Assembly (NCBI GenBank): GCA_963767035.1
Contig: CAVYBW010000001.1
Coordinates: forward strand, 2,182,547-2,246,546
Origin: an uncultured Chloroflexia bacterium
GTDB lineage: Bacteria; Chloroflexota; Chloroflexia; Chloroflexales; Herpetosiphonaceae
Direction of reading: 5' to 3'
DNA: 64,000 nt
Shown here: piece after piece, positions 29,327 to 43,956 of the stretch
Position numbering within the stretch: the stretch's first letter is position 1
Layout of the letters: each line of letters starts with the position of its first letter
Notes under the pieces: model-generated
What the model was told of the DNA's origin: nothing
The model's database searches: none
The model's input: only the letters and a program-made list of their open reading frames with translations
Position numbers and translations under genes: made by a program

Positions 29327-29364
29327 AGCGCAGGCAGTTCTAAATTGCCTGCGCTTATTTTTTA
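29327..29364. terminator. Bidirectional intrinsic terminator
   Basis: AGCGCAGGCA-9nt-TGCCTGCGCT followed by TTATTTTTT. Confidence 0.65.
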
Positions 29365-29401: not shown

Positions 29402-29767
29402 TCAGGAATTGGAGATTGATGATTGTTGGGTGTTGGTATACGCCGCCAAATCTTGTTCTTCGATCATTGGCATAAAGCGCGTCATCTCGACCATCTTGAA
29501 GATTTTTTGATGGTGAGGGCTGACGTGTAAACAAAAGACCTTATAGCCATTCTTGCGCGCAGCCACCACAAATTTCAGCAGCACCGAAATGCCAGCCGAG
29601 TTGATAAACGCCACATCAGCAAAATCTAAAACCGTGATTGGTTTCATTTGAGTACAGGCATGCTCGATCGTTGCTGCCGAGACCGCATCGACGCTGTTGG
29701 TCAGAATATGCAACAGCACGACATCATCCCACTCTTCTCGTCGAATTACCGATTGTACATCGCTCAT
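29402..29767 (-). CDS. STAS-domain anti-sigma-factor antagonist (RsbV/SpoIIAA-like)
   Basis: STAS fold with a conserved Ser region (FINSAGISVL). AGGAG RBS before MSDVQS. Confidence 0.8.
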   Translation of the reverse strand: MSDVQSVIRREEWDDVVLLHILTNSVDAVSAATIEHACTQMKPITVLDFADVAFINSAGISVLLKFVVAARKNGYKVFCLHVSPHHQKIFKMVEMTRFMPMIEEQDLAAYTNTQQSSISNS

Positions 29768-29876
29768 AATAGATCTCCTAGGTTGGTCAACGCGGCCAAC
29801 TCTGCCATGATCATAGTTGAGCAGACGCTTTTTGGCAACCAAGCTGTATGAATTTTTGATGACAGCTTAGTGATGT

Positions 29877-30069
29877 GCGAGGGGTCAGTGGTCAGGCATC
29901 AGGGACTAGCTTTAACGCAGCGGCGCAGAGTAATGATGGATCTTGGCTTTGGGCTATTGGCTATGGGAGATTCCTTGGAAATACCAACAATTGTTCCGCT
30001 AGCCAAATACCAATAGCCTAGAGCCCTAGCCTTCGTGGATCAACTCTAGCTCTTGAATCCTGACCCCTC
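29877..30069. repeat. REP-like palindromic element (GAGGGGTCAG family) between the rsbW-like and STAS genes
   Basis: GAGGGGTCAGTGGTCAGG ... at the left end and CTGACCCCTC at the right end; abuts the rsbW-like stop codon. Confidence 0.5.
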
Positions 30070-30073
30070 ACCA

Positions 30074-30490
30074 TTACTTCGCTTTAAAAATCCGGAGGCG
30101 CAAACTTGTGCCGGTGCCTGAGCTTTGGACTTCGTATTGATCAACCAACTCGCTGATCAGATACGAGCCAAAACCGCGCAGCATACCCGATTCAAGATTA
30201 TCTTCCTCGACGACGCGCCGCTCAGCATTGAAATGCTCGATGCCCCTGCCATGATCAATAATTTCAACTTCTAATTGATCGGCGTGCAATGAAAAAATAA
30301 CTTCGACCGAGCCAACCACGCCACCGCCGCCATGCTCGATGGCGTTGGTCACAGCTTCGCTCACCGCCAGTTTGAGGTCTTCAACCCGTTCACGGGGAAA
30401 CCCCATTGTGCTACCGAGTTCGGCGGCACTGGCGCGGACAACCCGCTCAAAAACGAGGTCAGATGGAATGTTGAGGTGAATCCGATTCAT
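30074..30490 (-). CDS. Anti-sigma regulatory factor (RsbW/SpoIIAB-type Ser protein kinase, HATPase_c)
   Basis: N-box EAVTNAIEHG and G-boxes DHGRGI, GFGSYL. Confidence 0.8.
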   Translation of the reverse strand: MNRIHLNIPSDLVFERVVRASAAELGSTMGFPRERVEDLKLAVSEAVTNAIEHGGGGVVGSVEVIFSLHADQLEVEIIDHGRGIEHFNAERRVVEEDNLESGMLRGFGSYLISELVDQYEVQSSGTGTSLRLRIFKAK

Positions 30491-32044
30491 CGTGAACCTC
30501 CACGGGCCATTGCGCGGCCCTTTTGTGGTAATTGTTCCTGTTGGTTGATCAGATGTTCATAGCGGCGTAGATAGGCCTTACCCAAGGAACTGTTGCCAAC
30601 TTGGAGATAACATGCTCCCAAATAGTAAAGTGCTTGGGTATGGCGTGGGTTGCGGCGCAGCACTTTTTCAAATAACGGAATCGCTTGGGCTGGTTCTAAC
30701 ATTTCTTTATAGCAGGTACCAAGCATAAAGGTGGTTTCAATATCATCGGGCCAGTGCATTAACACATGGCTAAATTCACGCGAAGCCAAATCGTAGCGGC
30801 GGCGGCGGGTATACATATAGCCCAAATCGTAGCGCAATGAATGCGCATGCGGCGCTAACTCCACAGCTTTGCGCCACGCAGCCAAGGCCCAGCTTTCATG
30901 GCCCAGCACCGTATACATAAAACCGAGCAAATAGTAGGCATTGGGATCTTTGGGCAAGAGCTGCACTGCGCGTTCAAAAGCTCGCATGGCGGCATGATGT
31001 TTTTCTGAAATCATACAGCAGCTTGCCCATTTGCAAGAACACTTGGCCATCGTTGGGGCGCAATTTGGCGGTGCTATACAAATGGGTATAGGCTTCGCGA
31101 TGCTTGCCTTGAAAACGTAAAATCGCGCTGATCCGCAGCCGTGCATCAACATAGTAGCGGTCTTGGGGCGGAATCCGGCCATATTCTTGAAAAGCCAGTT
31201 CCCAGCGCCGCGCCCGCGCCAACAAATTACCAAGCAAATAGCGGGCCCGATGCTCAGTTGGTCGCCATTTGAGCAAGGCATCATAAATCCGCTTGGCATC
31301 TTCGTCGTAGCCTTGGGATTTAAGATCGTCGCTCAAACGATAGTACCAATTGGCGACCTCTTGCTCAGATTTGCTGACCAGCACTTCATCGGGGCCAACG
31401 CTGGGCGAGATAAAAGTTGGTTCAACCCGCAGCGCCTCAGCAAAACAGCGTTGAGCCAATTCGTGAGCGCCATGTGCTTGGTGCATCAACCCCATGTAAT
31501 ACAATGGTTCGCCGGCATAGGGCCGCAATTCGCGGGCTGAAGTAAAGTGAATATAGGCACGGCCAGCATCATCGAGCATCTGATAGGCGCGACCAAGCGC
31601 AAAATGGGCCTCGTACAAGCCATTGTTATGCTCAAGCGCTTCCTTGAACGCGCCAATCGCCCGATCAATTTGGCGCATCGCTCCAAAGGCCACGCCCAAG
31701 TTATAGTGAGCTTCGGCCAATTGCGGATCGGTTTGTACCGATTCCAAATATTCGCGCTGGGCAGTTGGCCAATCATCTTGAAAGGCACAGGCATTGCCAA
31801 TATACAAATAAATAATCGCTCGCTCGCGATCGTAAATTTGCGATTTCTCATCGCCCTCAACATAGGCCGCGATCAAGGCGGTTTTGAAATGCTCGATCGC
31901 ATCAGGATAATTAGCGGCCAAATAGGCTTTGATCCCGCGCCCAAACGCAGCACCCAAGCGCGTCCCAGCCATAAAACGCTCGCTCCCAGCAAAGGTATCG
32001 AGGTCCAGCGGCATTACATTTAGCGTGTCAACATTGGTAGTCAT
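30487..32044 (-). CDS. TPR-repeat protein, disrupted by a frameshift at the T5/A5 run 31000-31004
   Basis: ORFs 30974..32044 and 30487..31299 are both TPR-rich. Removing one A from AGAAAAACA fuses them. Confidence 0.7.
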
Positions 32045-32054
32045 AACAGTTCCC

Positions 32055-33149
32055 TTAGGACGATCCTTTGGTGGATTGGAGCAAGCGATATTCTTCGATC
32101 ACTGGGCGCAATTGCGCTTGGAGTTCGCGGGCAATCCCACGGCCAAATTGGCTAGCAACCATCTCATTGAGCGGGCGCAATAATTCCAGGCATTGGTCGG
32201 GGGTGCGAGTGGTGCCAACAAGCTCCAAGCTTTGCCACCACTCATCGGCAGTAATTGGCCCAACCACATCGCCGACAATGCTATGCATTTCATCAAGCAA
32301 ATTGGCCAAGCGCCGCCGCACAAGCACCATCGTCACATCATCGTGTTTAAGTTGGCCTTTGGTCCAAGCACGAACTTCGCTAAGCACTCGCGCCATCAAG
32401 GCTCGCGGCTTGAGATGGCCAACGGTTTGTAAGAGGCTTTGAAAGCGTGGATAGCCATATAACACTTGATGCTCATTGGTTGCTTCGACAACTCCATCAG
32501 TGTACAACATCACCGAATCGCCATAATTCAGTTGTAAGATGGATTCAGTATAGCAATCAATTTCCATCACGCCGAGTGGCACACCTGACGTTTCGATTTC
32601 AACTACTTGATTATTGATCACAATCAGATAATTGTGACCAGCATTTGCCAACTGCATCATCCCGGTTTGCGGGTTGATTAATGCATAGAGCATCGTAACC
32701 ATGCCATGCGGCATCTCTTCGATCAAAATATTATTGACTGCTGCCAAGGTTTGGCCCGGCGATTGACCACGGCGCACTTCGGCCCGAAAGACCGTTCGGG
32801 CTACCGCCATGCGCAAGGCCGCCGGCAAGCCCTTGCCGCTCACATCGCCAATCATAATCCCTTGAGTGCCATTGACGGCCAGAAAATCGTAAAGGTCGCC
32901 ACCAAGCTCACGCGCTGGCAATGAGACCGCGCTCAATTCCCAGCCAGGTAGGCGCGGCACAGTTTCGAGCATCAAGCCTTGTTGCAAATCGCGGGCCAAT
33001 TGCAAATCTTGTTCCAACTCAGCTTGGCGCGGGTCGGGCGCTGGCACTTCGGGCGGCGCTGGCAACGGTGACTCAAGTGGAATCGTCACCCGACCTTGGG
33101 CGCGATGACTGAGCAGTGAACTATACATTGCTGGTTGTACTTTTTGCAT
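32055..33149 (-). CDS. PP2C-type Ser/Thr phosphatase (RsbU/SpoIIE family)
   Basis: GDVSGKG, ANAGHN and YTDGVVEA PP2C motifs. Confidence 0.85.
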   Translation of the reverse strand: MQKVQPAMYSSLLSHRAQGRVTIPLESPLPAPPEVPAPDPRQAELEQDLQLARDLQQGLMLETVPRLPGWELSAVSLPARELGGDLYDFLAVNGTQGIMIGDVSGKGLPAALRMAVARTVFRAEVRRGQSPGQTLAAVNNILIEEMPHGMVTMLYALINPQTGMMQLANAGHNYLIVINNQVVEIETSGVPLGVMEIDCYTESILQLNYGDSVMLYTDGVVEATNEHQVLYGYPRFQSLLQTVGHLKPRALMARVLSEVRAWTKGQLKHDDVTMVLVRRRLANLLDEMHSIVGDVVGPITADEWWQSLELVGTTRTPDQCLELLRPLNEMVASQFGRGIARELQAQLRPVIEEYRLLQSTKGSS

Positions 33150-33153
33150 AATT

Positions 33154-34614
33154 TTAGAATGTTCCTTGGCTGGCTTCTAATGCGCCAATCCAGCGTTCAC
33201 AGGCAGAACGCAACCACCCAACTGCGATTCCATCGATCACTGCGCTGCTTGAATGCTGCGCCAATTTGCGCAAGGCATGTTGATAATAGCGCAAGGCTGC
33301 GGTTGACCGTCCTTGATGGCGATAGCTTTCGGCTAAGTGAAAGGCAATCGTCGGCGAGTCGGGCACTAAATAACTGGCACGCTCTAGATAATTAATTGCT
33401 TTATCCCACGCGCCTTGGTTGAGTTCAATCATGCCCAGCACCACATATGCAGCATCTTGCAGGACATCAAGCTCTAAGGCCCGGCGAGCTTCGGCAGCCG
33501 CTTGCTCATGTTGACCAAGATCGGCGTGCAATTGGGCGGCCAAGGCTAAAATTGCTGGCTGGCGCTGATTGGGCGCAATCGTTGCCAACAAACTCAAGCC
33601 ACGTCGCTGTTGACCCTGACTACGTAACTTCCGCGCTTCATCCAACAAACTGGGCACATCGGGCAGTTTGGGCGGATTGACCGTCGCCAATGGCCGGGTG
33701 ATTGGCCGTGGCCGTGGCGCTGGCTGCTCAACTGGCTTGCTGAGCGGCGTAGTAATTGGCCGTTCGCTCAAGTTGGCTCGTAGTTTGGGCTGACCATCGC
33801 CTTTACGATAGATAAAGGCTCCAGCCACCTCGACCGTTTCAAAGCGATCAAAAATGCCCCACAGCGATTCAGAAAAGCCCAAGAGCAAATAACCACCAAC
33901 CGCCATCGCTGCGTAGATCCGTTCGATCAGCTGGCGACATGTTTCAAGCTGAAAATAGATCGTGACATTTTGGCAAAACACCAGATCAAGCTGATAGGCC
34001 CAATGGGGCAAGACATCGAGCAAATTGTGCTGCTCGAATTGTACCAAGGATCGCACAGCTTCGCTGACACGTAGCGACCCATTGGGCTGCGGCTCAAACC
34101 ACTGTTTGTAGTCGGCTTGAACATTGGTCAACGAACGCCCACGATATTCGGCGGCAATCGCTCGCTCAAGCGGCACATGGCTTAAATCGGTAGCCCAAAT
34201 CGAAATCGGGCGGCTCGGCGGATTGCCCCATTGCTGCAATGCCACCATGGCCATGCTATATGGTTCCTCGCCGGTCGAACAGCCAGCGCTCCAGCAACGC
34301 AGCGGACGCAACGGCGAACGCAAACGCTGCAATTCAGGCAAAATATGCTCACGCAAGGCCCGAAAATGGGCTGGGTTGCGAAAAAACTGCGTTTCATGAT
34401 TGGCCAAGCGTTCAGCCAACCATTGCAATTCGCTGCCATTGGTTGGGTCTTGAATTCGTAGCGTATAGGCAGCGGCGCTAATTTGCAACTGGCGAAAGCG
34501 TTCCTGAACAAGCATCCGCCCTTGGCGCATGCGACTATCATCAAGATACAACCCCGCTCGGCGAGCAAGATAATCGCGGATGATCGTCCATTGTTCAGTG
34601 CTTAGCTCGCTCAT
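33154..34614 (-). CDS. cheR: Chemotaxis methyltransferase CheR fused to a C-terminal TPR domain
   Basis: CheR SAM-dependent MTase core (FFRNPAHF, WSAGCSTGEEPYS) followed by TPR repeats. The start overlaps the cheB stop. Confidence 0.85.
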   Translation of the reverse strand: MSELSTEQWTIIRDYLARRAGLYLDDSRMRQGRMLVQERFRQLQISAAAYTLRIQDPTNGSELQWLAERLANHETQFFRNPAHFRALREHILPELQRLRSPLRPLRCWSAGCSTGEEPYSMAMVALQQWGNPPSRPISIWATDLSHVPLERAIAAEYRGRSLTNVQADYKQWFEPQPNGSLRVSEAVRSLVQFEQHNLLDVLPHWAYQLDLVFCQNVTIYFQLETCRQLIERIYAAMAVGGYLLLGFSESLWGIFDRFETVEVAGAFIYRKGDGQPKLRANLSERPITTPLSKPVEQPAPRPRPITRPLATVNPPKLPDVPSLLDEARKLRSQGQQRRGLSLLATIAPNQRQPAILALAAQLHADLGQHEQAAAEARRALELDVLQDAAYVVLGMIELNQGAWDKAINYLERASYLVPDSPTIAFHLAESYRHQGRSTAALRYYQHALRKLAQHSSSAVIDGIAVGWLRSACERWIGALEASQGTF

Positions 34615-35693
34615 CGCCGGGTAGTTTCGCTGAGCAGCGTCACCAAACGCGGCGCAATCTGATCGGCGGCTAAAAATTCCATCGCAGCCCCAGCCTCCTC
34701 TGCTGCTCGCGGCATGCCCCAAATTGCGCTGGTAGCCCGATCTTGGGCGATGGTGCGTGCACCAGCCCGACGCAAGGCCAACAAACCTTGGGCACCATCA
34801 CGGCCCATGCCAGTCAACAGCACGCCAATCGTTTGTTTAGGCAGCACCTTGGCGGCAGATTGCATGGTCACATCGACCGATGGATACAATAACGTATCTG
34901 GCTCCGATTCAAGATGCACCGTCCAATTGCCGTCAATGCGCAAATGATGGGTATCTGGCGCAACATAAACATGGCCATTTTGCAAACGCATGCGATGTTG
35001 AGCCAACTCCACGGTCAACGGCGAATGATTGTCCAACCAGTCTACCATTGTACCAACAAATCCCTCGGCGATGTGCTGCACAATGATAATGCTTGCGGGG
35101 ATACCCGCAGGCAGACTATGCAGCAATTTGTATAACACTCGTGGGCCACCAGTTGAAGCCCCAACTACAATCAACCAGCGTTGGCTTGGCGGGCTAACCG
35201 AGGCCAGCAGCAAGGGAATATTGGTTTCGGTGGTCGGCGATTTGCGTCGTCGCCCGCGCAGGTGGGTAACCACCCGCACCCGTGAAAGCACCTTAACCCG
35301 CTCGAGCAGCCGCAGCCGATTGCGCTCGCCTTGGGCTAAGGTCAAGTCATTGGGTTTTTCCCAAACTTCCAAGGCTCCGGCGTTGAGCATTTGAAAGGTT
35401 AAGTTCCGATCATGGCGAGTTAGCGATGAAGTGATGACCAAAATTGGTGTAGGATGATAGGCCATAATTTCTTCGGTGGCCTGCAATCCATCCATCACCG
35501 GCATGCGCACATCCATCGTGATAATATCTGGTTGCAATGCTGCCACCAATTGCACCGCCTCACGGCCATCACGTGCCTCGCCAACCACCTGAATCGCTGG
35601 ATCACTGGCTAAAATAGTGCTGATGACTCGGCGCGAAACCGCCGAATCATCGACAACTAAGACTCGAATTGGTGCAAGCGGCCCTGTCATCAT
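34611..35693 (-). CDS. cheB: Protein-glutamate methylesterase CheB (REC plus methylesterase)
   Basis: N-terminal REC (VLVVDDS ... DVRMP) and CheB catalytic domain (GASTGGP, HIAEGF). Confidence 0.9.
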   Translation of the reverse strand: MMTGPLAPIRVLVVDDSAVSRRVISTILASDPAIQVVGEARDGREAVQLVAALQPDIITMDVRMPVMDGLQATEEIMAYHPTPILVITSSLTRHDRNLTFQMLNAGALEVWEKPNDLTLAQGERNRLRLLERVKVLSRVRVVTHLRGRRRKSPTTETNIPLLLASVSPPSQRWLIVVGASTGGPRVLYKLLHSLPAGIPASIIIVQHIAEGFVGTMVDWLDNHSPLTVELAQHRMRLQNGHVYVAPDTHHLRIDGNWTVHLESEPDTLLYPSVDVTMQSAAKVLPKQTIGVLLTGMGRDGAQGLLALRRAGARTIAQDRATSAIWGMPRAAEEAGAAMEFLAADQIAPRLVTLLSETTRR

Positions 35694-36052: not shown

Positions 36053-36102
36053 TGAAAAACTCCTCGCAGGGGAACATACACATTGATCAAGGCGGCGCTA
36101 TT

Positions 36103-38415
36103 TTAGCGGCCAAGTAATTGATGAATCGTTTCGAGCAAGTTGCTTTGATCAAACTGGCTTTTGACGATATAGGCTTGCGCGCCAGCCAATAAGCCTTCGC
36201 GGCGGTCACTATCACGGGCTAGGCTTGTGATAATGATAATTGGCAATTGGCGCAAGCGTTCATGGCCACGCACGCGGCGGGTTAGCTCAAAGCCAGTTAG
36301 CAACGGCATTTCAACATCGCTTACCAGCAGATCGTAGGAATTGAGATTGAGCTTGTCAAGCGCATCTTGACCATTAATCGCTGTTTCTACGATGTAGCCC
36401 GCCGATTGTAGCATTGAGCGTAGTAGTTCGCGGGTGGTAAATGAATCTTCAGCAACCAGTAATTTGGCTGGCTGACGTTTGCTGGGCGCCGGCAAGCTAA
36501 CTGGCTTGCCCCATTCACGGGCGCGGGCAGCAATCGCCAAGGGGTTGAGCACCAGCACCAAGCGGCCATCGGGCAGGGCAATCGCCCCGGTGCATAAACG
36601 CTGTTCGCTCAATAAAGCGCCCAACGATTTCACCACGACCTCGCGTTCATCGACCAATTTATCAACCAGCAAGGCCAAGGGACGATTGGCAGGCCCTAAA
36701 ACCACCAAATTGGAAATATCCGATGGTTGGGGCAACGGGCCGCGTTGCTCAAGCAACGGCGCAAGCGCCACAATGCTCACGCTGCGCTCATCGACCCGCA
36801 CACTTGGTCGACCTTCTACCATTTGAATTTGCGCGCCTGATACGCGCCGCCCGCCCAAACAAGCGGTCGAAGGCAAGGCATAGGTGGTTCCAGCCACATC
36901 AAACAATAGCACGCGGGTTGTCAGCAAAGTAATCGGCAGAATCAACGTAAAGGTGGTGCCTTGACCAAGCACCGAATCCACATCAACCCGTCCGCCAACT
37001 TCGGTCACGGCGGCACGCACCACGTCCATGCCCACGCCACGGCCAGAAACATCGGTGATGATTGCGCTGGTGGAAAAACCAGGCTGCCAGATCAACTCCA
37101 AGGCTTCTTCATCGCGCAAACGGGCTGCGGCCTCAGCATCGATAATCCCACGTTTAATCGCTGTCGATCGAATGATTGCAGGATCAATCCCACGGCCATC
37201 GTCACTAATGGCTAGCTCAATTGTGCCACCCAATGAGCGCGCTTGCAGCCGCAAGGTCGCTTCGACAGGCTTTTTGGCCTTAACGCGCTCATCGGGGGTT
37301 TCAACCCCATGATCAAGCGCATTGCGCACCAAGTGCAACAACGGATCAGCCATCAATTCGATTACTTTGCGGTCGGCCTCGGTGGTTTCGCCATCGGTGA
37401 TTAAATTAACTTCTTTGCCCAGCGACCTAGCTAATTCACGGACTGCGCGCGGAATCGGTGCAAACAAACCAGCAACTGGCTGCAAACGGGTTGCCATCAC
37501 CTCAGCTTCAAGTTCATCGACCAAGGCTTCGCTGGCAGCGCTATGGCTGCTCCAACGCTCGCTTAGCAAACGCAACTGATTACGCGTCGCTTGAGCCAAA
37601 TTTTGCAGTTGGCTGGCTAATTCGCTGGCCTCACGCCGTTGCTGAAAGGTCACCCGTTGGCCCGTCAAGCGCTCGCTCAATTGTTGGCTTAGGCGCTCAC
37701 TTTTGGTCAGCAATTTATCTAAAGCTTCAAGATCGGCGACATGCTCAAGGTGCAATTGGCGAGTTACCACCAACTCACCAGCAGTATTCAACAAGCGATC
37801 TAAGCGCGAAATTGGCACGCGCACCGTCGAACGCGTGGTGTTAATCAGCTTTGGGGCTTCGCTCGCAGGCTTGGCTTTGGTTTTTGCGGCTGGCGGCGTT
37901 GCGACAACTGGCGCTGGCTGAGATTGTTCAACCTCAACGGGAATCGACTCTGGCTCAGGTGCTGCTTCGAGCACTGGCTCGACAATTGGTACAGGTTTGG
38001 CGACTGGCAGCGTAGTTGGTACGCTTTCGCCAGCCGCCAAGGCATTCAGTTGCTCCACCAAGATATCCACTTGCGGATCAGTTGGTGGTGGCTCGTTGAC
38101 CTGAGCGTTCAAGACCAGCAACACATCAGCGCTGGCCAACAGCACATCATTAATGCTTGAATTCATGGCCAGCATGCCACTGCGCAAGGCCGAAAGCAAG
38201 CTCTCCATACTATGTGCCAAACGCCCCATATCGATTTGGCCCAGCATACGGGCTGAGCCTTTGATCGTATGTGCCGCCCGAAAAATCGTATCAATCGCTT
38301 CGCGATCGCCTGGGTTTGACTCTAAGGCCAACAAGCCGCTAGTCAAGGCCCGCACATTCTCTTCAGTTTCTTCGCGAAACTGGCCAAAAAATGCTGATAA
38401 ATCAAAACCGCCCAT
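36103..38415 (-). CDS. cheA: Hybrid CheA histidine kinase (HPt-dimerisation-HATPase-CheW-REC)
   Basis: HPt motif AAHTIKGSARMLG, HATPase block HLVRNALDHG...DDGRGID, a CheW-like domain and a C-terminal REC (LLVAEDS ... DVEMP). Confidence 0.9.
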   Translation of the reverse strand: MGGFDLSAFFGQFREETEENVRALTSGLLALESNPGDREAIDTIFRAAHTIKGSARMLGQIDMGRLAHSMESLLSALRSGMLAMNSSINDVLLASADVLLVLNAQVNEPPPTDPQVDILVEQLNALAAGESVPTTLPVAKPVPIVEPVLEAAPEPESIPVEVEQSQPAPVVATPPAAKTKAKPASEAPKLINTTRSTVRVPISRLDRLLNTAGELVVTRQLHLEHVADLEALDKLLTKSERLSQQLSERLTGQRVTFQQRREASELASQLQNLAQATRNQLRLLSERWSSHSAASEALVDELEAEVMATRLQPVAGLFAPIPRAVRELARSLGKEVNLITDGETTEADRKVIELMADPLLHLVRNALDHGVETPDERVKAKKPVEATLRLQARSLGGTIELAISDDGRGIDPAIIRSTAIKRGIIDAEAAARLRDEEALELIWQPGFSTSAIITDVSGRGVGMDVVRAAVTEVGGRVDVDSVLGQGTTFTLILPITLLTTRVLLFDVAGTTYALPSTACLGGRRVSGAQIQMVEGRPSVRVDERSVSIVALAPLLEQRGPLPQPSDISNLVVLGPANRPLALLVDKLVDEREVVVKSLGALLSEQRLCTGAIALPDGRLVLVLNPLAIAARAREWGKPVSLPAPSKRQPAKLLVAEDSFTTRELLRSMLQSAGYIVETAINGQDALDKLNLNSYDLLVSDVEMPLLTGFELTRRVRGHERLRQLPIIIITSLARDSDRREGLLAGAQAYIVKSQFDQSNLLETIHQLLGR

Positions 38416-38430
38416 GCGATAGCTCCTCGC

Positions 38431-39933
38431 TTAGCGTGTATTGGCATCGATGTTGACCAACGAATGCAAACGATTTGCAATCGCGGTGAGTTTGGATGCA
38501 GCATCGGCAGTTTGGCGCGAACCAGCCGCCGTTTGACGTGAGACTTCGGCAATTTCACGCATGGTTTCAACAACTTGCTCCGAGGCAGTTTGTTGCTGAG
38601 CGGTCGCTAGGCTAATTTCTTGCGCCAATTGAGCGGTGTGTTCGCCCAAAACCACAATCGAATCCATCTCTTGGCCGGCCCGATGCGCCAAACTGACCCC
38701 TTGTTCAACTTCTTTGACGCTATCTTCGGTGGCCAGCACCGAGGCATTGGTGGCAGCCTGAATTTCGGCAATCACATCTTTGACTTCACGTGAAGCGGCC
38801 AAAGTACGGTTAGCCAAACTCTTGACTTCGGCTGCGACCACCGCAAAACGGCGGCCATGTTCGCCAGCGCCAGCTGCTTCAATCGCAGCATTCAAGGCCA
38901 ACAGGTGGGTTTCATCAGAAACATCATCAATCAAGGCAATGATTTCGCTGATATGATGCGAACGTTCGCCCAAGCTCAACACTCGCGAAGAAACCTCTTG
39001 AACCCGTTGCTTGATCCGTTCCATGCCTTGAATCGCTTCATCAACCGATTGCTGGCCCATTGCCAACGAGGTCAAGGTTTGTTGGGCGGCAATGCTCACT
39101 TGGTCTGAGGCGCTGGCAATTTGGCGGGCAGTAAAGCCCAATTCTTCGATTGTTGATGAAACTTCTGCCACCGCCGAAGCTTGTTCGGTTGCGCCCGAAG
39201 CCTGTTGCTGCGAGGCCGCCGATAATTCGGTGGCAGCAAACGACAGATCGGTGCCCAGTTCAATTTGCTGAATATTTTTCTCGATCAGTTGCTCGTTGGC
39301 CCGCATCAAATCGGCAGTCCATTGCTCGCTCTTGAGTGAATATTCGGCCAGGGCTTTGCTAAAAATCGTGGTTAGCACAATCGTCGTAGCCAAACCGACA
39401 AAAAATAGCACTGCGCCAACGCCATAGACTCCCGCATCACCAGCGGTTAAGGTTCCCTCCGGAACCCTGAACAAGCCAAGGTTGTCTTTGAGTAGCAACA
39501 ACATGCCATAGGCAAAGGTGATCGAAACACCATAGGCCACAATTTCGCGCCAAGTTGCAACCAAGCCGACAATGAACAACATTACCAGCAGCAACGAAAT
39601 AATCAGGCTTTGATCGATGCCGCCATAACGCACGGCACATGCCAAAGCCGAGAGCGAAATCGTGCCAATTAACACATAGGTTGCAACTTGGTCTTGGCCT
39701 TGGCGAATCATGCGCAGGCTCAGCAAGGCAATCAACCAAACCGTACCCATCGAAACAAACAATACTCCAAGCGCATTCCACAATTGGGGATTATTGCGCT
39801 CGTAGATCCATGCCACGAGTACCACTAGAAATGGCACAACCAAGGCAGCCAAGGCGACAATCCGCATAATCACGCGGCGGCGATCAGTCAAATTCGTAAA
39901 ATCGAGCGAGAAAAGCGAACCTAAATTCGCCAT
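38431..39933 (-). CDS. Methyl-accepting chemotaxis protein with a multi-TM N-terminal domain
   Basis: Highly conserved MCP signalling domain (LLALNAAIEAAGAGEHGRRFAVVAAEVKSLA). The N-terminal 200 aa are mostly TM helices. Start at MANLGS with a GGAG RBS. Confidence 0.85.
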   Translation of the reverse strand: MANLGSLFSLDFTNLTDRRRVIMRIVALAALVVPFLVVLVAWIYERNNPQLWNALGVLFVSMGTVWLIALLSLRMIRQGQDQVATYVLIGTISLSALACAVRYGGIDQSLIISLLLVMLFIVGLVATWREIVAYGVSITFAYGMLLLLKDNLGLFRVPEGTLTAGDAGVYGVGAVLFFVGLATTIVLTTIFSKALAEYSLKSEQWTADLMRANEQLIEKNIQQIELGTDLSFAATELSAASQQQASGATEQASAVAEVSSTIEELGFTARQIASASDQVSIAAQQTLTSLAMGQQSVDEAIQGMERIKQRVQEVSSRVLSLGERSHHISEIIALIDDVSDETHLLALNAAIEAAGAGEHGRRFAVVAAEVKSLANRTLAASREVKDVIAEIQAATNASVLATEDSVKEVEQGVSLAHRAGQEMDSIVVLGEHTAQLAQEISLATAQQQTASEQVVETMREIAEVSRQTAAGSRQTADAASKLTAIANRLHSLVNIDANTR

Positions 39934-39955
39934 GAGCAGACTCCTTGGCACTGGT

Positions 39956-40378
39956 CTAGCGCTTGGCGTGTACCAGCACAAACAGTTCGAGATCAAGCAT
40001 GAGGCATGGGCGTTCGTCGAGCATAATAATGCCCAAAATGCTGGGGTCGAGCAAGCTATCGGAAACTAAACTTGGCAGCGGTTGTAGTGTCAGCGCGGCA
40101 CTAATCGGGTCGCCCAATTGATCAACTACCACGGCCAAGGTTGCTTGCCCACCCACAAATAAGGCTAATCGATTGGCTTGTTGGCCAATTGGCTGCTGCA
40201 ACCACTGATTCAAATCAATCACATCGATTGGGTTGCCATGCTGAATCACACGGCGCAATGGGTTGCCATTATTGGCAACGTAATCCACACCGACCAAGGC
40301 AGTTTGACGAATTAAAATGGTTTGATCGCCAACACTGACCGGGTACAAATCGCTGACAACTGCAGGGCTAACCATTGT
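39956..40378 (-). CDS. cheW: CheW-like coupling protein (second copy)
   Basis: CheW-like fold, but divergent. Start is uncertain. Confidence 0.6.
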   Translation of the reverse strand, partial: TMVSPAVVSDLYPVSVGDQTILIRQTALVGVDYVANNGNPLRRVIQHGNPIDVIDLNQWLQQPIGQQANRLALFVGGQATLAVVVDQLGDPISAALTLQPLPSLVSDSLLDPSILGIIMLDERPCLMLDLELFVLVHAKR

Positions 40379-40817
40379 TGATTGACCCAAGCAGCGCCGC
40401 CAGATCCAGCCATGTGGCAAAACCAAACGGCGTTGGCAACAAGCCACGGCTGGCAACCGTCCCACGGTGGGGCGTTGGCTCAGCCAAACTCAAATCAAGC
40501 AGCAACATATCCAGCACTTGATCAACCGCAATTGCACAATCAATCTGTTCGTGGACAAGCAAAAAGCGGCTTCGGCGGGTTGGATTAATCGGCTTCATGC
40601 CCAAAATCACCCGCATATCAACCGCCGTCAGCAAGACCCCGCGCTGATTGATAATGCCCATAATTGCCGCCGCCGTGCCTGGAATGCGCGTTGGAGTGCG
40701 CCAACGCTCGATGCCCCGAGCTTGCTCAACCGGCAAGGCAAAGCGTTCTTGATCGAGGATAAAAACCACAAATTGCGCCAATTGATCCTCAACTTGGCTC
40801 ACAGCAGGCTCCCTCAT
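40368..40817 (-). CDS. cheW: CheW coupling protein
   Basis: CheW domain (FVVFILDQERFALPVEQARGIERW ... GIINQRGVLLTAVDMRVILG). Confidence 0.8.
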   Translation of the reverse strand: MREPAVSQVEDQLAQFVVFILDQERFALPVEQARGIERWRTPTRIPGTAAAIMGIINQRGVLLTAVDMRVILGMKPINPTRRSRFLLVHEQIDCAIAVDQVLDMLLLDLSLAEPTPHRGTVASRGLLPTPFGFATWLDLAALLGSINNG

Positions 40818-40960
40818 AATTCAATGCTGACAGCTTTGGCCAATCGCCGAGCAACCAAGCACCAAATCACCATACATGGCGCATTCTAAAGCAGCAAATC
40901 GTAGCTTAGCATAGTCGCAAGGTAGCCTCCCTGTCAAGCGTACTAAACCAGCTAATTTGC

Positions 40961-41250
40961 AGGAGGAAATATGAAGTATGAGGGATGAAATCAAAAGGCA
41001 GAAATCAAAAATCAACATTGAGCTGAGGATAAAAAGCTAATTAACGCAGAGGCCCAGCCATATCAGGCGATTGGCTAGTGACTGTTTGTAGTGAAGAAGA
41101 ATCATCCAAATCTTGGTTAATCTGTGGCTAAAAATAAGCCTTTGTGGATCAAGGATTAACGTGGAGGAGCAAAGTATCAAAACCCTATAGCAATATTTTC
41201 TTTATTTCACTACAGAACGCTTCGTCCCTCATCCCTCATATTTCATCCTT
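40961..41250. mobile_element. MITE-like 290 bp AT-rich element with about 27 bp imperfect TIRs (AGGAGGAAATATGAAGTATGAGGGATGA)
   Basis: Left TIR at 40961-40990 and inverted right TIR at 41225-41250. The right end abuts the stop codon of the REC gene. The TIRs resemble those of the element at 25276-25415. Confidence 0.5.
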
Positions 41251-41576
41251 TACAAGGCTTGTAATTGGGTAATTAGATGATGGCCAGTAATCGGCTTGGC
41301 AAGGCTCAGGCAACCAGTGGTTCGCGGTTGGGGCAAATCGGTCAGCAGAATATAGTTCTGATGATCATGGTAATTGATCGGATTGCTGTGTTCGATCGAG
41401 ATCGCTTCATCGAGGATCACAAATTGGGGTTGATATTGCTCGTTTAATTGGGCCGCAAGCGTGCAGCTATCGGCTTCGTAGACTGTGTAGCCTGCTCGAC
41501 GAAGGTGATATAGCATCAAAGTTCGGGTAATCTGATCGGGATCAACGAGCAAAACAGTCTTTGGCATACAAAACAT
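41250..41576 (-). CDS. Stand-alone REC-domain protein (single-domain response regulator, divergent)
   Basis: LLVDPD, VILDE, LLTD and AKP at the expected REC positions. Confidence 0.55.
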   Translation of the reverse strand: MFCMPKTVLLVDPDQITRTLMLYHLRRAGYTVYEADSCTLAAQLNEQYQPQFVILDEAISIEHSNPINYHDHQNYILLTDLPQPRTTGCLSLAKPITGHHLITQLQAL

Positions 41577-41643
41577 CCTTATAGTGATGGATTATTTGGG
41601 CAACCATCACCATCACTATAAGAACGCAAGTTTACGAGTGAGA

Positions 41644-42354
41644 TTACAAGCCCCGCCGCGGTTGGACATCAAACACGTAGCCAACGCCGCGCACGGTTTT
41701 TAAATAAATTGGCTTTGATGGATTGTCCTCAAGTTTGGTGCGCAACGAGCGAATTCGTACCCACAGCGAGGATTGATCGCCCTCTTCGCCCAAGCCCCAA
41801 GCCTTGCGCAACAAGGTTGTGGTTGCCACGGCGACGGTTGGAGTTTGCAGCAGCAAATACAACACCCGCAGTTCAATTGGCTCTAGTGGAATTGCCTCGC
41901 CTTTGCGCATGAGAATATGCTGGCCGAAATTGACCGATAGATCCTCGTCAATCACAATTAACTCGCCTGGATGCAAGCCACCTTCATACGATTTGGTCAG
42001 CAGTTTGTTGACCCGCGCCCGCAGTTCGGGGTAACGATAGGGCTTGGTCATATAATCATCGGCATGTTGCTCAAGCCCGCGCACAGTTGTGGCTTCATCA
42101 GAAATCGAGGTGAGCATGATGATTGGAATTTCAACATAGCGTCGCAAGCGATCAGATAATTCAAACCCCGTCATGCCAGGCATCATCAAATCGAGAATCG
42201 CTAAATCGGGCCATGAACTTTCGACCATCGTCAGCGCCGATTGGCCCGACTCTGCCGCCATAACTTCAAAGCCATCGCTTAGCAAATTGCTCACCAAGGT
42301 GCGGCGAATAATAGTGTCATCATCAACCACAAGAATACGCCATCGTGCTGGCAT
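41644..42354 (-). CDS. OmpR-family response regulator (REC plus winged-helix)
   Basis: REC (ILVVDDD ... DLMMPGM) plus the OmpR C-terminus (VRGVGYVF). Confidence 0.85.
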   Translation of the reverse strand: MPARWRILVVDDDTIIRRTLVSNLLSDGFEVMAAESGQSALTMVESSWPDLAILDLMMPGMTGFELSDRLRRYVEIPIIMLTSISDEATTVRGLEQHADDYMTKPYRYPELRARVNKLLTKSYEGGLHPGELIVIDEDLSVNFGQHILMRKGEAIPLEPIELRVLYLLLQTPTVAVATTTLLRKAWGLGEEGDQSSLWVRIRSLRTKLEDNPSKPIYLKTVRGVGYVFDVQPRRGL

Positions 42355-42360
42355 TGAGTC

Positions 42361-43956
42361 CTACTCCTTCCAAGGTAGCTGCATGGTGACCGTCGTCCCC
42401 TTGCCTACTTGGCTATCAACGCTAATTGTGCCGCCATGAGCACCAACTGCTAAATTACAGAAGGTCAGGCCCAGCCCTGTGCCGCGCGATTGGGCCGCAG
42501 TTCGTCCTTGATAAAATTTATCGAAAATATGTGGAATATCTTCGGCGGAAATTCCCTGCCCAGTATCGCTAACCCTGAGCGTAATGGTTTTCGCTGCTTG
42601 GTCAATGCTGCCAATAACACGAATTGTACCGCCAGGTCTAGTCCATTTGATACCATTGCTGACTAAATTGGCCAATACCCGCACGATTTTATGCTCATCG
42701 AGCACAACCAGCGGCGCAGCAGGCAGATCAAGCTCAAAGGTCAATTGCTGCTCAACCGTAATCGGCAACACTTGCTCGCTCAAAAGTTCGCCAATCCGCT
42801 CAAGATTGGTGGTTTCTTGGCTAAGCACCAAACGGCCCGCTTCGGCTTTATACACATCAAGCAAATCGTCGATCAGGCGTTGCTGGGCGGCTCCCGCGCG
42901 AAAGCCAAGCTCGACAAACAATTTGCCATCGGCATCAAGTTGGGTTGTCATCAAGGCATCGAAGCAGCCAACCATACCGGCTAACGGCGCGCGTAAATCG
43001 TGGGTCAACATCTGAATAAAACCATCGCGGCTGTCTTCAGCCTCACGTAAGCGAGTGTAGACCGCAGCGTTGGTCAAGGCAACACTCAATTGATCAGTCA
43101 AGGCTTTAATTAAGGTTTCTAGCTCAGTTTTGAAGAAGTTGCGCTGTGGATGGACCAAAATAAACACGCCAATGATCGTATTTTGAGCATAATTATGCAG
43201 TGGCAAGGCTAAGGCAGAGCCAATTTCCTCACTATCATCATAAAAATGTTTCCAGCGTGGATCATTTTGGGCATCTTCGACGATTTGAACTTCGCCAGTG
43301 CGCAAGGCATGCGAGGCTAAGCCTTCACGCAAGACCGCTTCAATTGCTTGTTCGGCTTCGGCTGGCGGCAAATGCGGGCGAAACAGAATTCGCCGCCACA
43401 CTCGATTTTGATCATCAAGCAGCAAGACGCTGCCGCGACTAGCTCCCAAAAGTTCGTTGATCGCATTCAAGGCTTCGGGCAGGACTTGATCAATATCCAA
43501 TGAACGATGCAAGGTTTGCGAGACCCGATACAGAAAGCGCAGGCGTTCTTGTTCGCGGTGCAAAGCGCGGCGGGTATGTTTCAACCGCAACAGCACCCGC
43601 ATGCGTGCCAACAACTCATCGCGATTGACTGGCTTGGTGACGTAATCATCAGCGCCTAGATCCAAACCTGTGACGGTATCGGCGGTGGTTTGCTTGGCCG
43701 AAACGAAAATAATTGGAATAAACGGCAGATGGTTGCGCTCACGGATGGCTTGCAGGGTTTGATAGCCATCCATCTCCGGCATCATTACGTCAAGCAAAAT
43801 CAAATCGGGAACTTGTTGTTCGAGCATACTCAAGGCTTCGAAGCCGCTACGAGCACAGGCGGTTGCATAGCCAGCGCGTTCCAACATACGCTGTAACACC
43901 ATCACATTGGTGGTTTGATCATCAACAATCAAAATCAGTTCGGGTGTTGCTTGCAT
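42361..43956 (-). CDS. Hybrid sensor: REC-GAF-HisKA-HATPase histidine kinase
   Basis: N-terminal REC, a central GAF-like region, the H-box MLTHDLRAP and HATPase blocks (NLVSNGIKWT, DTGQGI, GTGLGL). Confidence 0.85.
   Translation of the reverse strand: MQATPELILIVDDQTTNVMVLQRMLERAGYATACARSGFEALSMLEQQVPDLILLDVMMPEMDGYQTLQAIRERNHLPFIPIIFVSAKQTTADTVTGLDLGADDYVTKPVNRDELLARMRVLLRLKHTRRALHREQERLRFLYRVSQTLHRSLDIDQVLPEALNAINELLGASRGSVLLLDDQNRVWRRILFRPHLPPAEAEQAIEAVLREGLASHALRTGEVQIVEDAQNDPRWKHFYDDSEEIGSALALPLHNYAQNTIIGVFILVHPQRNFFKTELETLIKALTDQLSVALTNAAVYTRLREAEDSRDGFIQMLTHDLRAPLAGMVGCFDALMTTQLDADGKLFVELGFRAGAAQQRLIDDLLDVYKAEAGRLVLSQETTNLERIGELLSEQVLPITVEQQLTFELDLPAAPLVVLDEHKIVRVLANLVSNGIKWTRPGGTIRVIGSIDQAAKTITLRVSDTGQGISAEDIPHIFDKFYQGRTAAQSRGTGLGLTFCNLAVGAHGGTISVDSQVGKGTTVTMQLPWKE

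Follow-up and report, generated by a model that had tools for sequence, protein, structure and literature searches.

A Chloroflexia-wide operon that may couple an ACF-class chemosensory array to a serine-phosphorylation partner switch

An 11-gene block conserved across Chloroflexia

We propose, with a probability of roughly 0.45, that a block of 11 genes in the DNA analysed here is the Herpetosiphon version of a signalling operon spread through the Chloroflexia, and that this operon links an ACF-class chemosensory array to a partner switch based on serine phosphorylation, of which a dedicated TPR protein forms part. The block lies in a stretch of 64,000 nucleotides (the window) from an uncultured member of the Herpetosiphonaceae; Herpetosiphon itself is a gliding soil bacterium. 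In the literature that we found, no study describes the Chloroflexia operon, and other bacteria are known to have related arrangements.

All 14 genes between positions 29402 and 43956 are called on the minus strand, to which the gene coordinates below refer. Their ORFs and Pfam domains agree with the gene list predicted for the locus, with the second CheW and the stand-alone REC as sub-threshold assignments. The predicted start and stop overlaps are present: CheB/CheR and TPR/RsbW show the ATGA type, CheY and CheB share 1 nt, and CheB, CheR, PP2C, TPR and RsbW are linked by such overlaps or by short gaps. The claim of tight spacing holds for these junctions but not for two spacers, one of 432 nt between REC and CheW and one of 306 nt between RsbW and STAS. 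Nor do the 14 genes form one unit. The conserved unit, as delimited by sequence comparison, is the 11 genes at 29402-40817, in the order CheW, CheW, MCP, CheA-REC, CheY, CheB, CheR-TPR, PP2C, TPR, RsbW-like kinase and STAS, and the three upstream two-component genes, which are genus-specific, fall outside it. The 432-nt gap 5' of CheW (40818..41249, minus strand) likely contains the start of the operon. It holds a promoter-like site, TTGACA-18-TATGCT (40937-40908), which is only suggestive because promoter-like counts are not above chance. A hairpin with a 14-bp stem (29326..29356), found in a terminator scan between the STAS stop and a convergent plus-strand gene, is the likely end.

Across 64 Chloroflexia genomes, the order of the block (type 1) and its strand are kept at 55 of 57 loci that are informative downstream and at all 42 that are informative upstream, with protein identities of 36-75%. 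A second gene order, RsbW-STAS-PP2C-TPR-CheW...CheA-CheY-CheR, brings the same families together at three loci (L087-L089). The linkage has therefore survived rearrangement, and a functional tie of the PP2C, RsbW and STAS genes to the chemosensory system is thus strongly supported by the gene comparisons.

Chemosensory proteins

The block begins with a CheW gene (40368..40817; Pfam CheW, 72 bits) that has collinear orthologues at all 42 informative loci. The second CheW-like protein (39956..40375, the first coordinate being approximate) is divergent, scoring 19.5 bits against a cutoff of 23.5. It is likely to start at the ATG at 40375, overlapping the stop of the first, and its positional orthologues are recorded as CheW at locus L001 and as a weak CheW at L003. 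The chemoreceptor (38431..39996; MCPsignal, 129 bits) has its likely start at the ATG at 39933. It contains six hydrophobic segments, as expected for the predicted six-transmembrane type, has neither a HAMP nor a periplasmic domain, and carries two methylation-consensus sites (AASQQQAS and ATAQQQTA). The protein aligns near-gaplessly, with one compensating 1-residue shift, to the Pseudomonas putida aromatic-acid chemoreceptor structure 6s18 and to a CtpM model, and is 27-28 residues longer than Tsr and Tar. We take 6s18 and CtpM to be of the 40H heptad class and Tsr and Tar of the 36H class; the alignment and the length difference place the receptor in class 40H.

The hybrid CheA (36103..38415) comprises Pfam-defined Hpt, extended dimerisation, HATPase, CheW and REC domains, with no P2 domain. 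Its architecture matches that of Herpetosiphon CheAs (770 versus 768 aa), which are listed as cheaACF (Berry 2023, Table S2), and it is accordingly classed as ACF. The single-domain CheY-like response regulator (35693..36052; Response_reg, 96 bits) has the residues D9, D10, D53, T83 and K102. It is 64-100% identical across the class, with D53 invariant, and in NCBIfam it matches receivers of the OmpR family best, not E. coli CheY. Adaptation enzymes are represented by a REC-containing CheB methylesterase (34611..35693; CheB_methylest, 198 bits; NCBIfam CheB, 357 bits, above the cutoff of 342) and a CheR methyltransferase with C-terminal TPRs (33154..34614; CheR, 172 bits, plus TPR families), whose ATG lies in the ATGA overlap with the CheB stop. 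In one published survey (PMC3447774), the Chloroflexi Che systems included are of the ACF class, with CheR-TPR as the sole CheR type, and the usual outputs of ACF systems are multidomain response regulators. Assignment of the whole chemosensory system to the ACF class is supported at the sequence level.

Partner-switch proteins

The SpoIIE/RsbU-type PP2C serine phosphatase (32055..33149; SpoIIE, 158 bits) lacks a REC domain. An N-terminal helix and, at residues 284-362, a C-terminal four-helix extension peculiar to the family are present, as are the invariant residues D85, D88, D102, G105, D218, D270 and D271. In an AF2 model (pLDDT 80.7) the core is closest to the partner-switch phosphatases SiaA, RssB, Rv1364c-RsbU and SpoIIE; these best Foldseek matches cover the core only, and the extension is unmatched.

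The RsbW/SpoIIAB-like GHKL serine kinase (30074..30490; HATPase_c_2, 88 bits), the ATG of which overlaps the TPR stop, retains the N box (E45/N49/H53), G1 (D79-G81-G83) and G2 (G106-G108) motifs. Among PDB structures it matches RsbW best (6m36, E 4e-13), and its NCBIfam RsbW score is 77 bits, under the cutoff of 145. The 121-aa single-domain STAS protein (29402..29767; STAS, 31 bits) starts at the ATG at 29767, which is preceded by an AGGAG ribosome-binding site. Alignment to SpoIIAA puts Ser57, in the motif FINSAGIS, opposite the phospho-serine, and F54, I55, N56, S57, G59, I60 and S61 are invariant in 58 STAS orthologues; the NCBIfam cutoff for anti-sigma antagonists is unmet. The spacer between kinase and STAS (29768..30073, minus strand) includes a 98-nt conserved STAS leader, with a promoter-like site at 29838-29810; the remainder is species-specific and folds into a hairpin of about 190 nt.

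A conserved TPR protein within the switch module

The TPR gene (30487..32044) is where the large TPR protein had been predicted, but in the window it is frameshifted, which had gone unnoticed. One inserted nucleotide (C on the coding strand) at 31007, around codon 346, splits it into two overlapping ORFs, the window reading GATTTCAGAAAAA and relatives GATTTAGAAAAA. The insertion was called against two congeners and an intact, 99%-identical protein (P0121); in relatives the gene is intact, at about 520 codons, and the repaired window copy encodes 518 aa. Either the module may be impaired in this strain or the extra base may be a sequencing error.

Together with CheY and STAS, the TPR protein is among the most conserved members of the block, with median identities to the Chloroflexaceae/Roseiflexaceae loci of 71-75% (TPR), 75% (CheY) and 69% (STAS); the medians for CheA (46%), CheR (43%) and PP2C (52%) are lower. 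Such high identity is the pattern expected of hub proteins with several partners. Over the type-1 loci the TPR protein is 57-88% identical to that of the window, and its N-terminal peptide and a linker motif are invariant. The AF2 model contains two TPR arrays (29-207 and 227-504), and the family is narrow, with just two full-length clusters at 50% identity. The protein accompanies the switch even at L085, where che genes are absent from the 10 kb available on each side. Judged by these comparisons, the TPR protein belongs integrally to the switch module and is its best-conserved component, which the original prediction missed.

Proposed mechanism and alternative explanations

In the mechanism that we propose, the six-transmembrane 40H receptor, the two CheW proteins and the CheA-REC hybrid would form the array, with adaptation by CheR-TPR and CheB. 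The membrane-embedded receptor would control CheA, from which phosphate would pass to the conserved single-domain CheY, to CheB and to CheA's own REC. CheY-P would turn on the soluble PP2C, akin to the receiver that CrsR, HsbR and RsbY carry joined to their phosphatase, probably through the C-terminal four-helix extension or by acting on the TPR scaffold. The phosphorylation state of STAS Ser57 would then be set by PP2C versus the RsbW-like kinase, and the output would be delivered by the STAS/kinase/TPR complex, not by CheY binding a motor directly. We infer this direction (Che to PP2C to STAS/RsbW/TPR) solely by analogy, and each phosphotransfer step and the target are likewise inferred. The target, not encoded in cis, would more likely be a non-sigma, protein-level one that is reached through the TPR protein and affects surface behaviour such as gliding, pili or aggregation. 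Counting against the model are the lack of a receiver domain in PP2C, which bears on the action of CheY-P, and two MAG contigs (L041 and L055) in which TPR-RsbW-STAS is absent after PP2C.

A canonical anti-sigma switch is rather unlikely in our judgement. Here, the RsbW-like kinase would hold a sigma factor encoded elsewhere and the array, through CheY and PP2C, would free it, so that the output would be transcriptional. Because the kinase resembles the anti-sigma kinases RsbW and SpoIIAB, its closest relatives, it is quite possible that such a sigma factor exists elsewhere; the alignment of STAS to SpoIIAA with its phospho-serine conserved, and the precedent of a che locus with a sigma-controlling partner switch, proposed for Shewanella Che1, CrsR/CrsA and RpoS, also favour this explanation. 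However, as the original prediction held for sigma factors, the scanned window ORFs of at least 110 aa (all but one) contain no sigma-70 family domain, nor any flagellar or pilus domain, and no sigma-like family recurs beside the type-1 loci. Kinase and STAS also fall below the NCBIfam cutoffs for RsbW and anti-sigma antagonists, the obligatory, highly conserved TPR protein would be left unexplained, and non-sigma targets are known for several partner switches (HmpV, SypA and HsbA-HsbD).

The functional coupling supported by two gene orders does not establish that the switch is the readout of the array, as had been predicted, and it may instead be a modulator of the array. The switch might feed back on the array, with the phospho-regulated STAS binding CheA or CheY, the TPR protein docking on the TPRs of CheR, and kinase activity, CheY-P lifetime or adaptation being tuned. 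The real outputs of CheA would then be REC-containing proteins, namely REC-GAF-HD-GYP enzymes in most lineages and, in Herpetosiphon, the REC-GAF kinase together with OmpR, and the switch would have another role. Such feedback has a parallel in Sinorhizobium meliloti CheS, a che-operon STAS protein that binds CheA. It would also accommodate the REC and REC-GAF-HD-GYP genes downstream of STAS in 25 type-1 loci, the multidomain regulators usual as ACF outputs, and CheR-TPR, which has no known partner and for which the literature suggests TPR-TPR contacts. We nevertheless consider it improbable, as the switch is universal and the HD-GYP and kinase/OmpR genes are not, the switch and TPR module stands without che genes at L085, and CheS functions without a kinase or phosphatase. 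Mere adjacency of two independent systems in one transcription unit would fit L085 too, as well as the 306-nt spacer and the promoter-like leader before STAS, but is very hard to reconcile with class-wide linkage in two gene orders, most proteins being 36-57% identical, and with the overlaps and short gaps from CheB to RsbW.

Relationship to known systems

A che locus ending in PP2C, STAS and RsbW genes is real but has precedents that the original prediction missed: Shewanella oneidensis che1 (CrsR/CrsA), the ancestral 'stage 1' gammaproteobacterial F7 clusters, and Nostoc Hmp with HmpUVW. The che1 and F7 clusters likewise combine che genes with a PP2C, an anti-sigma-type serine kinase and a STAS protein; control of the phosphatase by a receiver domain is presumed, and there too the link between Che and switch is a proposal. 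CrsR is a single REC-PP2C-kinase polypeptide, whereas the Chloroflexia CheY, PP2C (without REC) and kinase are encoded separately. In addition, che1 is of the F7 class with Aer2/McpA-type receptors and CheD, in contrast to the ACF class, single six-transmembrane 40H receptor and absence of CheD in Chloroflexia, and CrsR/CrsA has no TPR protein and a known target, RpoS. The order PP2C, kinase, STAS is common to the Chloroflexia operon, CrsR/CrsA and Pseudomonas aeruginosa HsbR/HsbA, a receiver controlling the phosphatase in the latter two. In P. aeruginosa, HptB-HsbR-HsbA (FlgM, HsbD, RpoS) runs from a phosphorelay through a receiver and a PP2C/kinase pair to the STAS serine, and STAS picks between partners, with ties to motility and c-di-GMP. 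Its input, however, is hybrid kinases acting via HptB instead of a Che array, HsbR is fused, and a TPR component is absent.

Nostoc punctiforme is a filamentous glider in which the Che-like Hmp system and the PP2C/kinase/STAS switch HmpU/HmpW/HmpV are both needed for surface motility. The STAS protein is the output, on an undefined non-sigma effector, and its gene is under regulation of its own. Unlike those of Chloroflexia, the genes in Nostoc are divided between unlinked loci (Npun_F5960-64 versus R5134/R5135 and F5169), and neither CheB nor CheR is among the genes listed for the hmp locus (hmpA-F). The Hmp system is of the Tfp class and drives type IV pili. Given this control of gliding, and that the present organisms glide without flagella, the predicted output 'instead of a motility output' is not established. 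A single complete Che system is reported for Herpetosiphon; gliding without flagella, this single system and the Nostoc precedent therefore suggest, by analogy, that the switch could be the route to motility. In Ca. Viridilinea, chemoreceptor-like arrays have been observed, and this organism, Roseiflexus and Chloroflexus have all been seen to bear pili near septa.

The Bacillus systems RsbU/RsbV/RsbW-sigB and SpoIIE/SpoIIAA/SpoIIAB-sigF share the three families and the phospho-serine with the Chloroflexia switch. Their operons hold a sigma gene and the Chloroflexia operon none, the NCBIfam equivalog cutoffs are unmet by the Chloroflexia proteins, and the inputs are RsbT/stressosome and cell-division cues in place of a Che array. 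The ACF pathways Wsp (WspC CheR-TPR, WspR), Myxococcus xanthus Che3/CrdA and Rhodospirillum centenum Che3/CheS3 share with the Chloroflexia system a CheA-REC hybrid, CheR-TPR, a non-flagellar output and receiver-bearing output enzymes or kinases near the cluster. Their output is, or runs via, a receiver-fused effector (GGDEF, NtrC-type or REC-kinase), and none is described with a PP2C/kinase/STAS/TPR module. S. meliloti CheS is a STAS-only protein that acts on CheA/CheY as part of flagellar chemotaxis, with no cognate kinase, phosphatase or TPR protein.

Upstream two-component genes

Upstream of the 432-nt gap lie genes for a REC-GAF-HisKA-HATPase kinase (42361..43956) and an OmpR-type regulator (41644..42354), both identified with Pfam, and a divergent stand-alone REC (41250..41576; 21 bits, under the Pfam gathering score of 30). 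Their orthologues occur only at the Herpetosiphon loci L005 and L006, the neighbours in other lineages being different, and the genes at 41250..43956 may constitute a lineage-specific transcriptional branch.

Gene content and spacing of the locus

ORF calling and Pfam searches identified 14 genes between positions 29402 and 43956, all on the minus strand and with the domains listed in the original prediction. First in transcription order are a histidine kinase with REC, GAF, HisKA and HATPase domains (42361-43956), an OmpR-type regulator (41644-42354) and a divergent stand-alone REC protein (41250-41576), which at 21 bits scores under the Pfam cutoff. They are followed by CheW (40368-40817), a second, weakly matching CheW (about 39956-40375; 19.5 bits), an MCP (38431-39996), a CheA containing Hpt, dimerisation, HATPase, CheW and REC domains (36103-38415), CheY (35693-36052), CheB (34611-35693) and CheR-TPR (33154-34614). 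The cluster ends with a SpoIIE-type PP2C phosphatase without a REC domain (32055-33149), a TPR protein (30487-32044), an RsbW-like HATPase_c_2 kinase (30074-30490) and a 121-residue STAS protein (29402-29767), whose ATG at 29767 lies after an AGGAG site.

The genes had been described as tightly spaced, and this applies to most junctions: CheB/CheR and TPR/RsbW have ATGA-type overlaps, CheY and CheB overlap by 1 nt, and the other junctions measure 4-50 nt. It does not apply upstream of CheW and upstream of STAS, where the gaps are 432 and 306 nt. A hairpin with a 14-bp stem lies downstream of STAS (29326-29356). No RNA family was matched in an Rfam search of 28500-44500, and promoter-like and terminator-like sites were no more frequent than in shuffled controls, so that single sites are suggestive only.

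The spacer between the RsbW-like kinase and STAS (29768-30073) is a composite. The 98 nt beside STAS contain a promoter-like site and show 94% conservation with two further species of Herpetosiphon. The remaining stretch of about 200 nt is species-specific and folds as a long imperfect hairpin (minimum free energy -98 kcal/mol, z -2.5), with none of 100 shuffled sequences equally stable. This stretch has no second copy within the window and may represent a small element that inserted here or a signal for processing.

Conservation of the locus in two gene orders

We used an alignment of the PP2C protein as the query to scan for homologous loci, retaining one genome per species. All 64 loci recovered belong to the class Chloroflexia, and their hosts include Herpetosiphon, Roseiflexus, Chloroflexus, Oscillochloris, Kouleothrix, Viridilinea, Ca. 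Ribeiella and many metagenome-assembled genomes (MAGs). The next-best matches, from Acidobacteriota and other groups, align to the PP2C catalytic core only and lack the neighbouring genes altogether. The window PP2C is 95% and 93% identical to its counterparts in two Herpetosiphon genomes, which places the window in this genus; an exact look-up returned no identical record.

Each window protein was then compared with the 64 loci by tblastn. CheW, MCP, CheA, CheY, CheB and CheR lie in this order 5' of the PP2C gene in all 42 loci that are long enough, and TPR, RsbW and STAS lie in order 3' of it in 55 of 57, the exceptions being two MAG contigs (L041 and L055). The three genes at the upstream end (kinase, OmpR and REC) occur only in two Herpetosiphon genomes, with an unrelated upstream neighbour elsewhere. 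Thus, while the gene list of the predicted 14.5-kb unit stands, the conserved unit comprises only 11 genes, from 40817 to 29402, and the three upstream genes are confined to Herpetosiphon.

A second gene order emerged from the TPR protein. Its family is narrow, with two full-length clusters (66% and 49% identity) among 1.84 billion cluster representatives and only generic giant TPR proteins beyond them. The 49% cluster corresponds to a locus, L085, in which the genes run RsbW-STAS-PP2C-TPR (6940-11938) and the 10 kb flanking each side contain no che gene. The PP2C of L085 has an N-terminal multi-transmembrane region and no C-terminal extension. It represents a family of about 75 clusters in which every organism-named match is to Chloroflexia or to a Chloroflexi bacterium. 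In three further loci, L087, L088 and L089, che genes come after RsbW-STAS-PP2C-TPR: each of the three has CheW, L087 and L088 have CheA-REC, L089 has an MCP, and L088 has CheY and CheR-TPR. Their proteins are 36-57% identical to the window counterparts. We had considered from L085 that the membrane domain replaces the Che input, but L087-L089 combine a membrane PP2C with che genes and this idea was rejected. A proposed homology between this membrane domain and the six-transmembrane module of the receptor was likewise dismissed, because no similarity between the two was detected.

Mere adjacency of the che and switch genes is an unlikely rival reading. Linkage of the same families in two different orders makes the case for shared function much stronger than one conserved order could, and functional coupling of the che genes to the partner switch is well supported. 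This part of the original interpretation therefore stands, whereas the direction of signalling and the 'non-motility' output that it also proposed are not established.

We also compared rates of divergence within the operon. Median identities to the window proteins, computed against Chloroflexaceae and Roseiflexaceae loci, are highest for CheY (75%), the TPR protein (71-75%) and STAS (69%), followed by the RsbW-like kinase (58%), MCP (56%), PP2C (52%), CheB (49%), CheA (46%), CheR (43%) and CheW (40%). The three slowest-evolving proteins are thus two small signalling adaptors, CheY and STAS, and the TPR protein, whose gene is the most conserved in the operon. Such a ranking is the pattern that would be expected of proteins with several simultaneous partners.

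Chemosensory proteins and their class

Pfam and NCBIfam matches identify CheA, CheW, MCP, CheB and CheR in the cluster. CheA is a 770-residue REC hybrid without a P2 domain, and its dimerisation match (residues 196-307) spans 112 residues against a profile of about 65, indicating extended helices. For class assignment we relied on papers citing Wuichet and Zhulin (2010) and on Table S2 of Berry et al. (2023). That table lists the CheA proteins of H. geysericola and H. llansteffanense as cheaACF, with 768 residues, the same five domains and a 110-residue dimerisation domain, with which the 112-residue match of the window CheA agrees. This likeness provides indirect support for placing the locus in the ACF class. 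As cited in the survey of CheR-TPR proteins by Munoz-Martinez et al. (2012, PMC3447774), the Chloroflexi Che pathways that Wuichet and Zhulin (2010) classified are all ACF; the survey also reports that Chloroflexi with CheR-TPR have neither a prototypal CheR nor flagellar genes.

The receptor has six hydrophobic segments and neither a periplasmic nor a HAMP domain. Its hairpin tip is at residues 375-381, its C-terminal arm extends 142 residues from the tip, and sites matching the methylation consensus lie at 260 and 464. It aligns almost without gaps to 6s18, an aromatic-acid chemoreceptor of P. putida (267 versus 267 residues), and to a model of CtpM (278 versus 279), with one compensating 1-residue shift, and it is 27-28 residues, or four heptads, longer than Tsr and Tar. 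We take 6s18 and CtpM to be 40H references and Tsr and Tar to be 36H. The lack of net indels relative to the 40H references, together with the four heptads beyond Tsr and Tar, therefore places the receptor in class 40H, an assignment made by alignment to these references. It supplies the heptad classification that had been proposed as a follow-up. CheY has the acidic pocket, T83 and K102, and is nearer to OmpR-family receivers than to E. coli CheY.

Partner-switch proteins

The PP2C protein belongs to the SpoIIE/RsbU subfamily (SpoIIE, 158 bits), and its metal-binding aspartates D85, D88, D102, D218, D270 and D271 are invariant. Its AF2 model (pLDDT 80.7) consists of the PP2C core, an N-terminal helix and a confidently predicted four-helix C-terminal extension (residues 284-362). 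Foldseek matches to SiaA, RssB, Rv1364c-RsbU, SpoIIE and RsbX cover the core only. The C-terminal helical module is private to the Che-linked soluble PP2C and is a candidate coupling surface.

The kinase is a small GHKL protein (HATPase_c_2, 88 bits) in which the N, G1 and G2 boxes can be read from the sequence, and its best solved relative is RsbW (PDB match, E 4e-13). Ser57 of the STAS protein aligns opposite the phospho-serine of SpoIIAA, and all 58 orthologues compared keep this serine. The three switch proteins all fall short of the NCBIfam equivalog cutoffs (RsbW equivalog, 77 bits against a cutoff of 145; ant_ant_sig, 40 against 53).

The TPR protein and its frameshift

The 'large TPR protein' of the original prediction is represented by a TPR gene, but the insertion of one nucleotide at 31007, close to codon 346, breaks this gene into two overlapping ORFs. 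The window has GATTTCAGAAAAACAT at this point, and both Herpetosiphon sp. NSE202 and H. giganteus have GATTTAGAAAAACAT. P0121, a protein from public data, is an intact TPR protein 99% identical to the repaired window sequence. When about 21 kb of DNA were aligned with these two congeners, the insertion was the sole unpaired frameshifting indel within any conserved coding sequence of the locus. It is therefore either a real strain-specific mutation or an isolated sequencing error. A generally error-prone assembly was rejected on the same grounds, and other apparent truncations arise from ATG-only ORF calling. A protein cut short by the frameshift would lack four or five TPR repeats at its C-terminal end.

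The AF2 model of the TPR protein (pLDDT 83) has two TPR arrays, at residues 29-207 and 227-504. An N-terminal peptide (residues 11-34) is invariant in sequence and modelled with low confidence, and the linker carries an invariant motif, E208, P209, T210 and F211; both look like candidate docking or modification sites. Fold searches returned only generic TPR superhelices (OGT, SPY and APC/C); Rap-like proteins and other informative folds were not among the matches. The protein always accompanies the three partner-switch genes.

Comparison with known systems

The closest precedent is the F7-class che1 locus of S. oneidensis, whose 10 genes include crsR (REC-PP2C-kinase) and crsA (STAS), which control RpoS; the link from Che to the switch is still described there as one that 'could be'. 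Ancestral stage-1 F7 clusters also contain anti-sigma antagonists and a Ser phosphatase. In CrsR/CrsA and HsbR/HsbA, a PP2C domain, a kinase domain and an adjacent STAS gene follow one another, an order mirrored by the PP2C, kinase and STAS of Chloroflexia. However, CrsR and HsbR carry REC, PP2C and kinase on one polypeptide, whereas in Chloroflexia there are three genes and the PP2C has no REC. Gliding in Nostoc punctiforme requires the Che-like Hmp system and an unlinked HmpU/W/V switch, with HmpV acting on an undefined effector; Hmp is of the Tfp class, shows no CheB or CheR gene in its locus as listed (hmpA-F) and drives type IV pili, whereas the Chloroflexia locus is probably ACF and has CheB and CheR-TPR. 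The S. meliloti protein CheS is a CheA-binding STAS protein. From these systems the Chloroflexia locus differs in its probable ACF class and 40H receptor, in having split rather than fused proteins and a PP2C without a receiver domain, in its obligatory TPR protein, which is highly conserved and has about 520 residues, and in having all components within one operon.

In the papers searched, we found no description of this association of Che and partner-switch genes. The words 'STAS' and 'anti-sigma' are absent from the text of the CheR-TPR survey (PMC3447774), other Chloroflexi papers were searched for chemotaxis terms only, and a V. cholerae review has nothing on STAS or phosphatase genes.

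Proposed mechanism and target

The gene set, the intact catalytic and phospho-acceptor residues and the linkage in two gene orders are direct observations, as is the position of the STAS gene next to those for the phosphatase and kinase in the order PP2C-TPR-RsbW-STAS. By analogy with Che pathways and with the RsbU/V/W, CrsR/CrsA and HsbR/HsbA switches, the membrane-embedded receptor would control CheA, which would phosphorylate CheY, CheB and its own REC domain, with CheR-TPR and CheB providing adaptation. CheY-P would activate PP2C in trans, in the manner of the CrsR, HsbR or RsbY receiver, and PP2C and the kinase would together determine the phosphorylation state of STAS Ser57. Output would then come from a complex of STAS, the kinase and the TPR protein.

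The target of the switch could be a sigma factor encoded elsewhere in the genome, in line with the RpoS control exerted by CrsR/CrsA. Within the window, a scan that covered all but one of the ORFs of at least 110 residues detected no sigma-70 family, flagellar or pilus domain, including those of type IV pili, in agreement with the original prediction, and no sigma-like family recurs beside loci that share the gene order of the window. Alternatively, the switch may feed back on the array in the fashion of CheS, the STAS precedent for binding CheA. We favour a non-sigma target, reached at the protein level through the TPR protein, on the grounds that this protein alone of the remaining components is universal, that no sigma gene is linked, and that there are documented examples of partner switches with non-sigma targets (HmpV, SypA and HsbA-HsbD). 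Of the conserved proteins, only the TPR protein is a candidate for a target whose binding would alternate with STAS.

Chloroflexales glide, have pili near their septa and show chemoreceptor-like arrays; they are reported to have Tad pilus genes only, and Herpetosiphon to have one complete Che system. Given the gliding, septal pili, arrays and single complete Che system, control of surface behaviour by the operon is a reasonable guess. A more specific reading, to which we give about one chance in four, is that CheY, PP2C, the kinase, STAS and the TPR protein constitute an undescribed output of the array, with the TPR protein engaging the machinery for gliding or for Tad pili, or else cell-cell behaviour, in filamentous Chloroflexia. 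The array would then set a serine-phosphorylation switch in place of CheY-P binding to a motor. If true, the unlinked Hmp and HmpUVW systems of filamentous cyanobacteria would have a counterpart encoded in a single operon, and a name could be given to the effector class that has long been missing for non-sigma partner switches.

Chemosensory pathways with non-flagellar outputs are common and mostly uncharacterised, and how a Che array is coupled to a partner switch is an open question even in Shewanella and Vibrio, and likewise in Nostoc. Although it introduces no new principle, the Chloroflexia locus is a clean system with wide conservation. It offers a compact test case: all components lie together, in either of two gene orders, the operon encodes just one receptor, and Herpetosiphon apparently has no other Che system. 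Its study could show by what route Che arrays drive partner switches and what the targets of non-sigma switches are, with the TPR protein as a candidate for the partner of such switches. As a regulator of gliding, aggregation or taxis in Chloroflexia, the operon is the obvious candidate.

Surroundings of the locus

No further gene is universally linked to the conserved block. A REC-GAF-HD-GYP protein, a putative c-di-GMP phosphodiesterase, is encoded 1-4 kb 3' of STAS on the same strand in 25 of the loci that share the gene order of the window (L011, at 13739-15892, L017, L020, L023, L048, L059 and 19 more). A stand-alone REC precedes it in the five loci whose intervening gene was scanned. The window does not encode this protein; where present, it may act as another output of CheA, either alternative or additional. 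Treating it and the Herpetosiphon REC-GAF kinase as output-swapped orthologues was unsupported, since their similarity (34%) does not extend beyond the REC domain and its linker. Other downstream neighbours of STAS encode EamA, ABC-2 exporters or an epimerase. A recurring ABC-F neighbour was considered and rejected, as the distant loci have ABC-2 exporters and the genes are unrelated.

The window flanks hold mainly housekeeping genes (fab genes, accC, nusB, tatAC, gltX, yidC and sodA), including three tandem FabG-like short-chain dehydrogenase paralogues beside fabD and fabH (18392-20447, minus strand). They also contain a NarL-type two-component pair, a HisKA_3 kinase with a NarL/GerE response regulator (48827-50477), on the plus strand and divergent from the che region, and two minus-strand Ser/Thr protein kinases (45882-48461 and 60289-61701), of which one has a zinc ribbon and two FGE-sulfatase domains and the other a C-terminal FHA domain. 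A second SpoIIE-type PP2C gene (2-1348, minus strand) is cut by the window edge and encodes at least 250 N-terminal residues with no assigned domain. The GC content of positions 1-2000 is 0.42, compared with about 0.51 for the remainder of the window.
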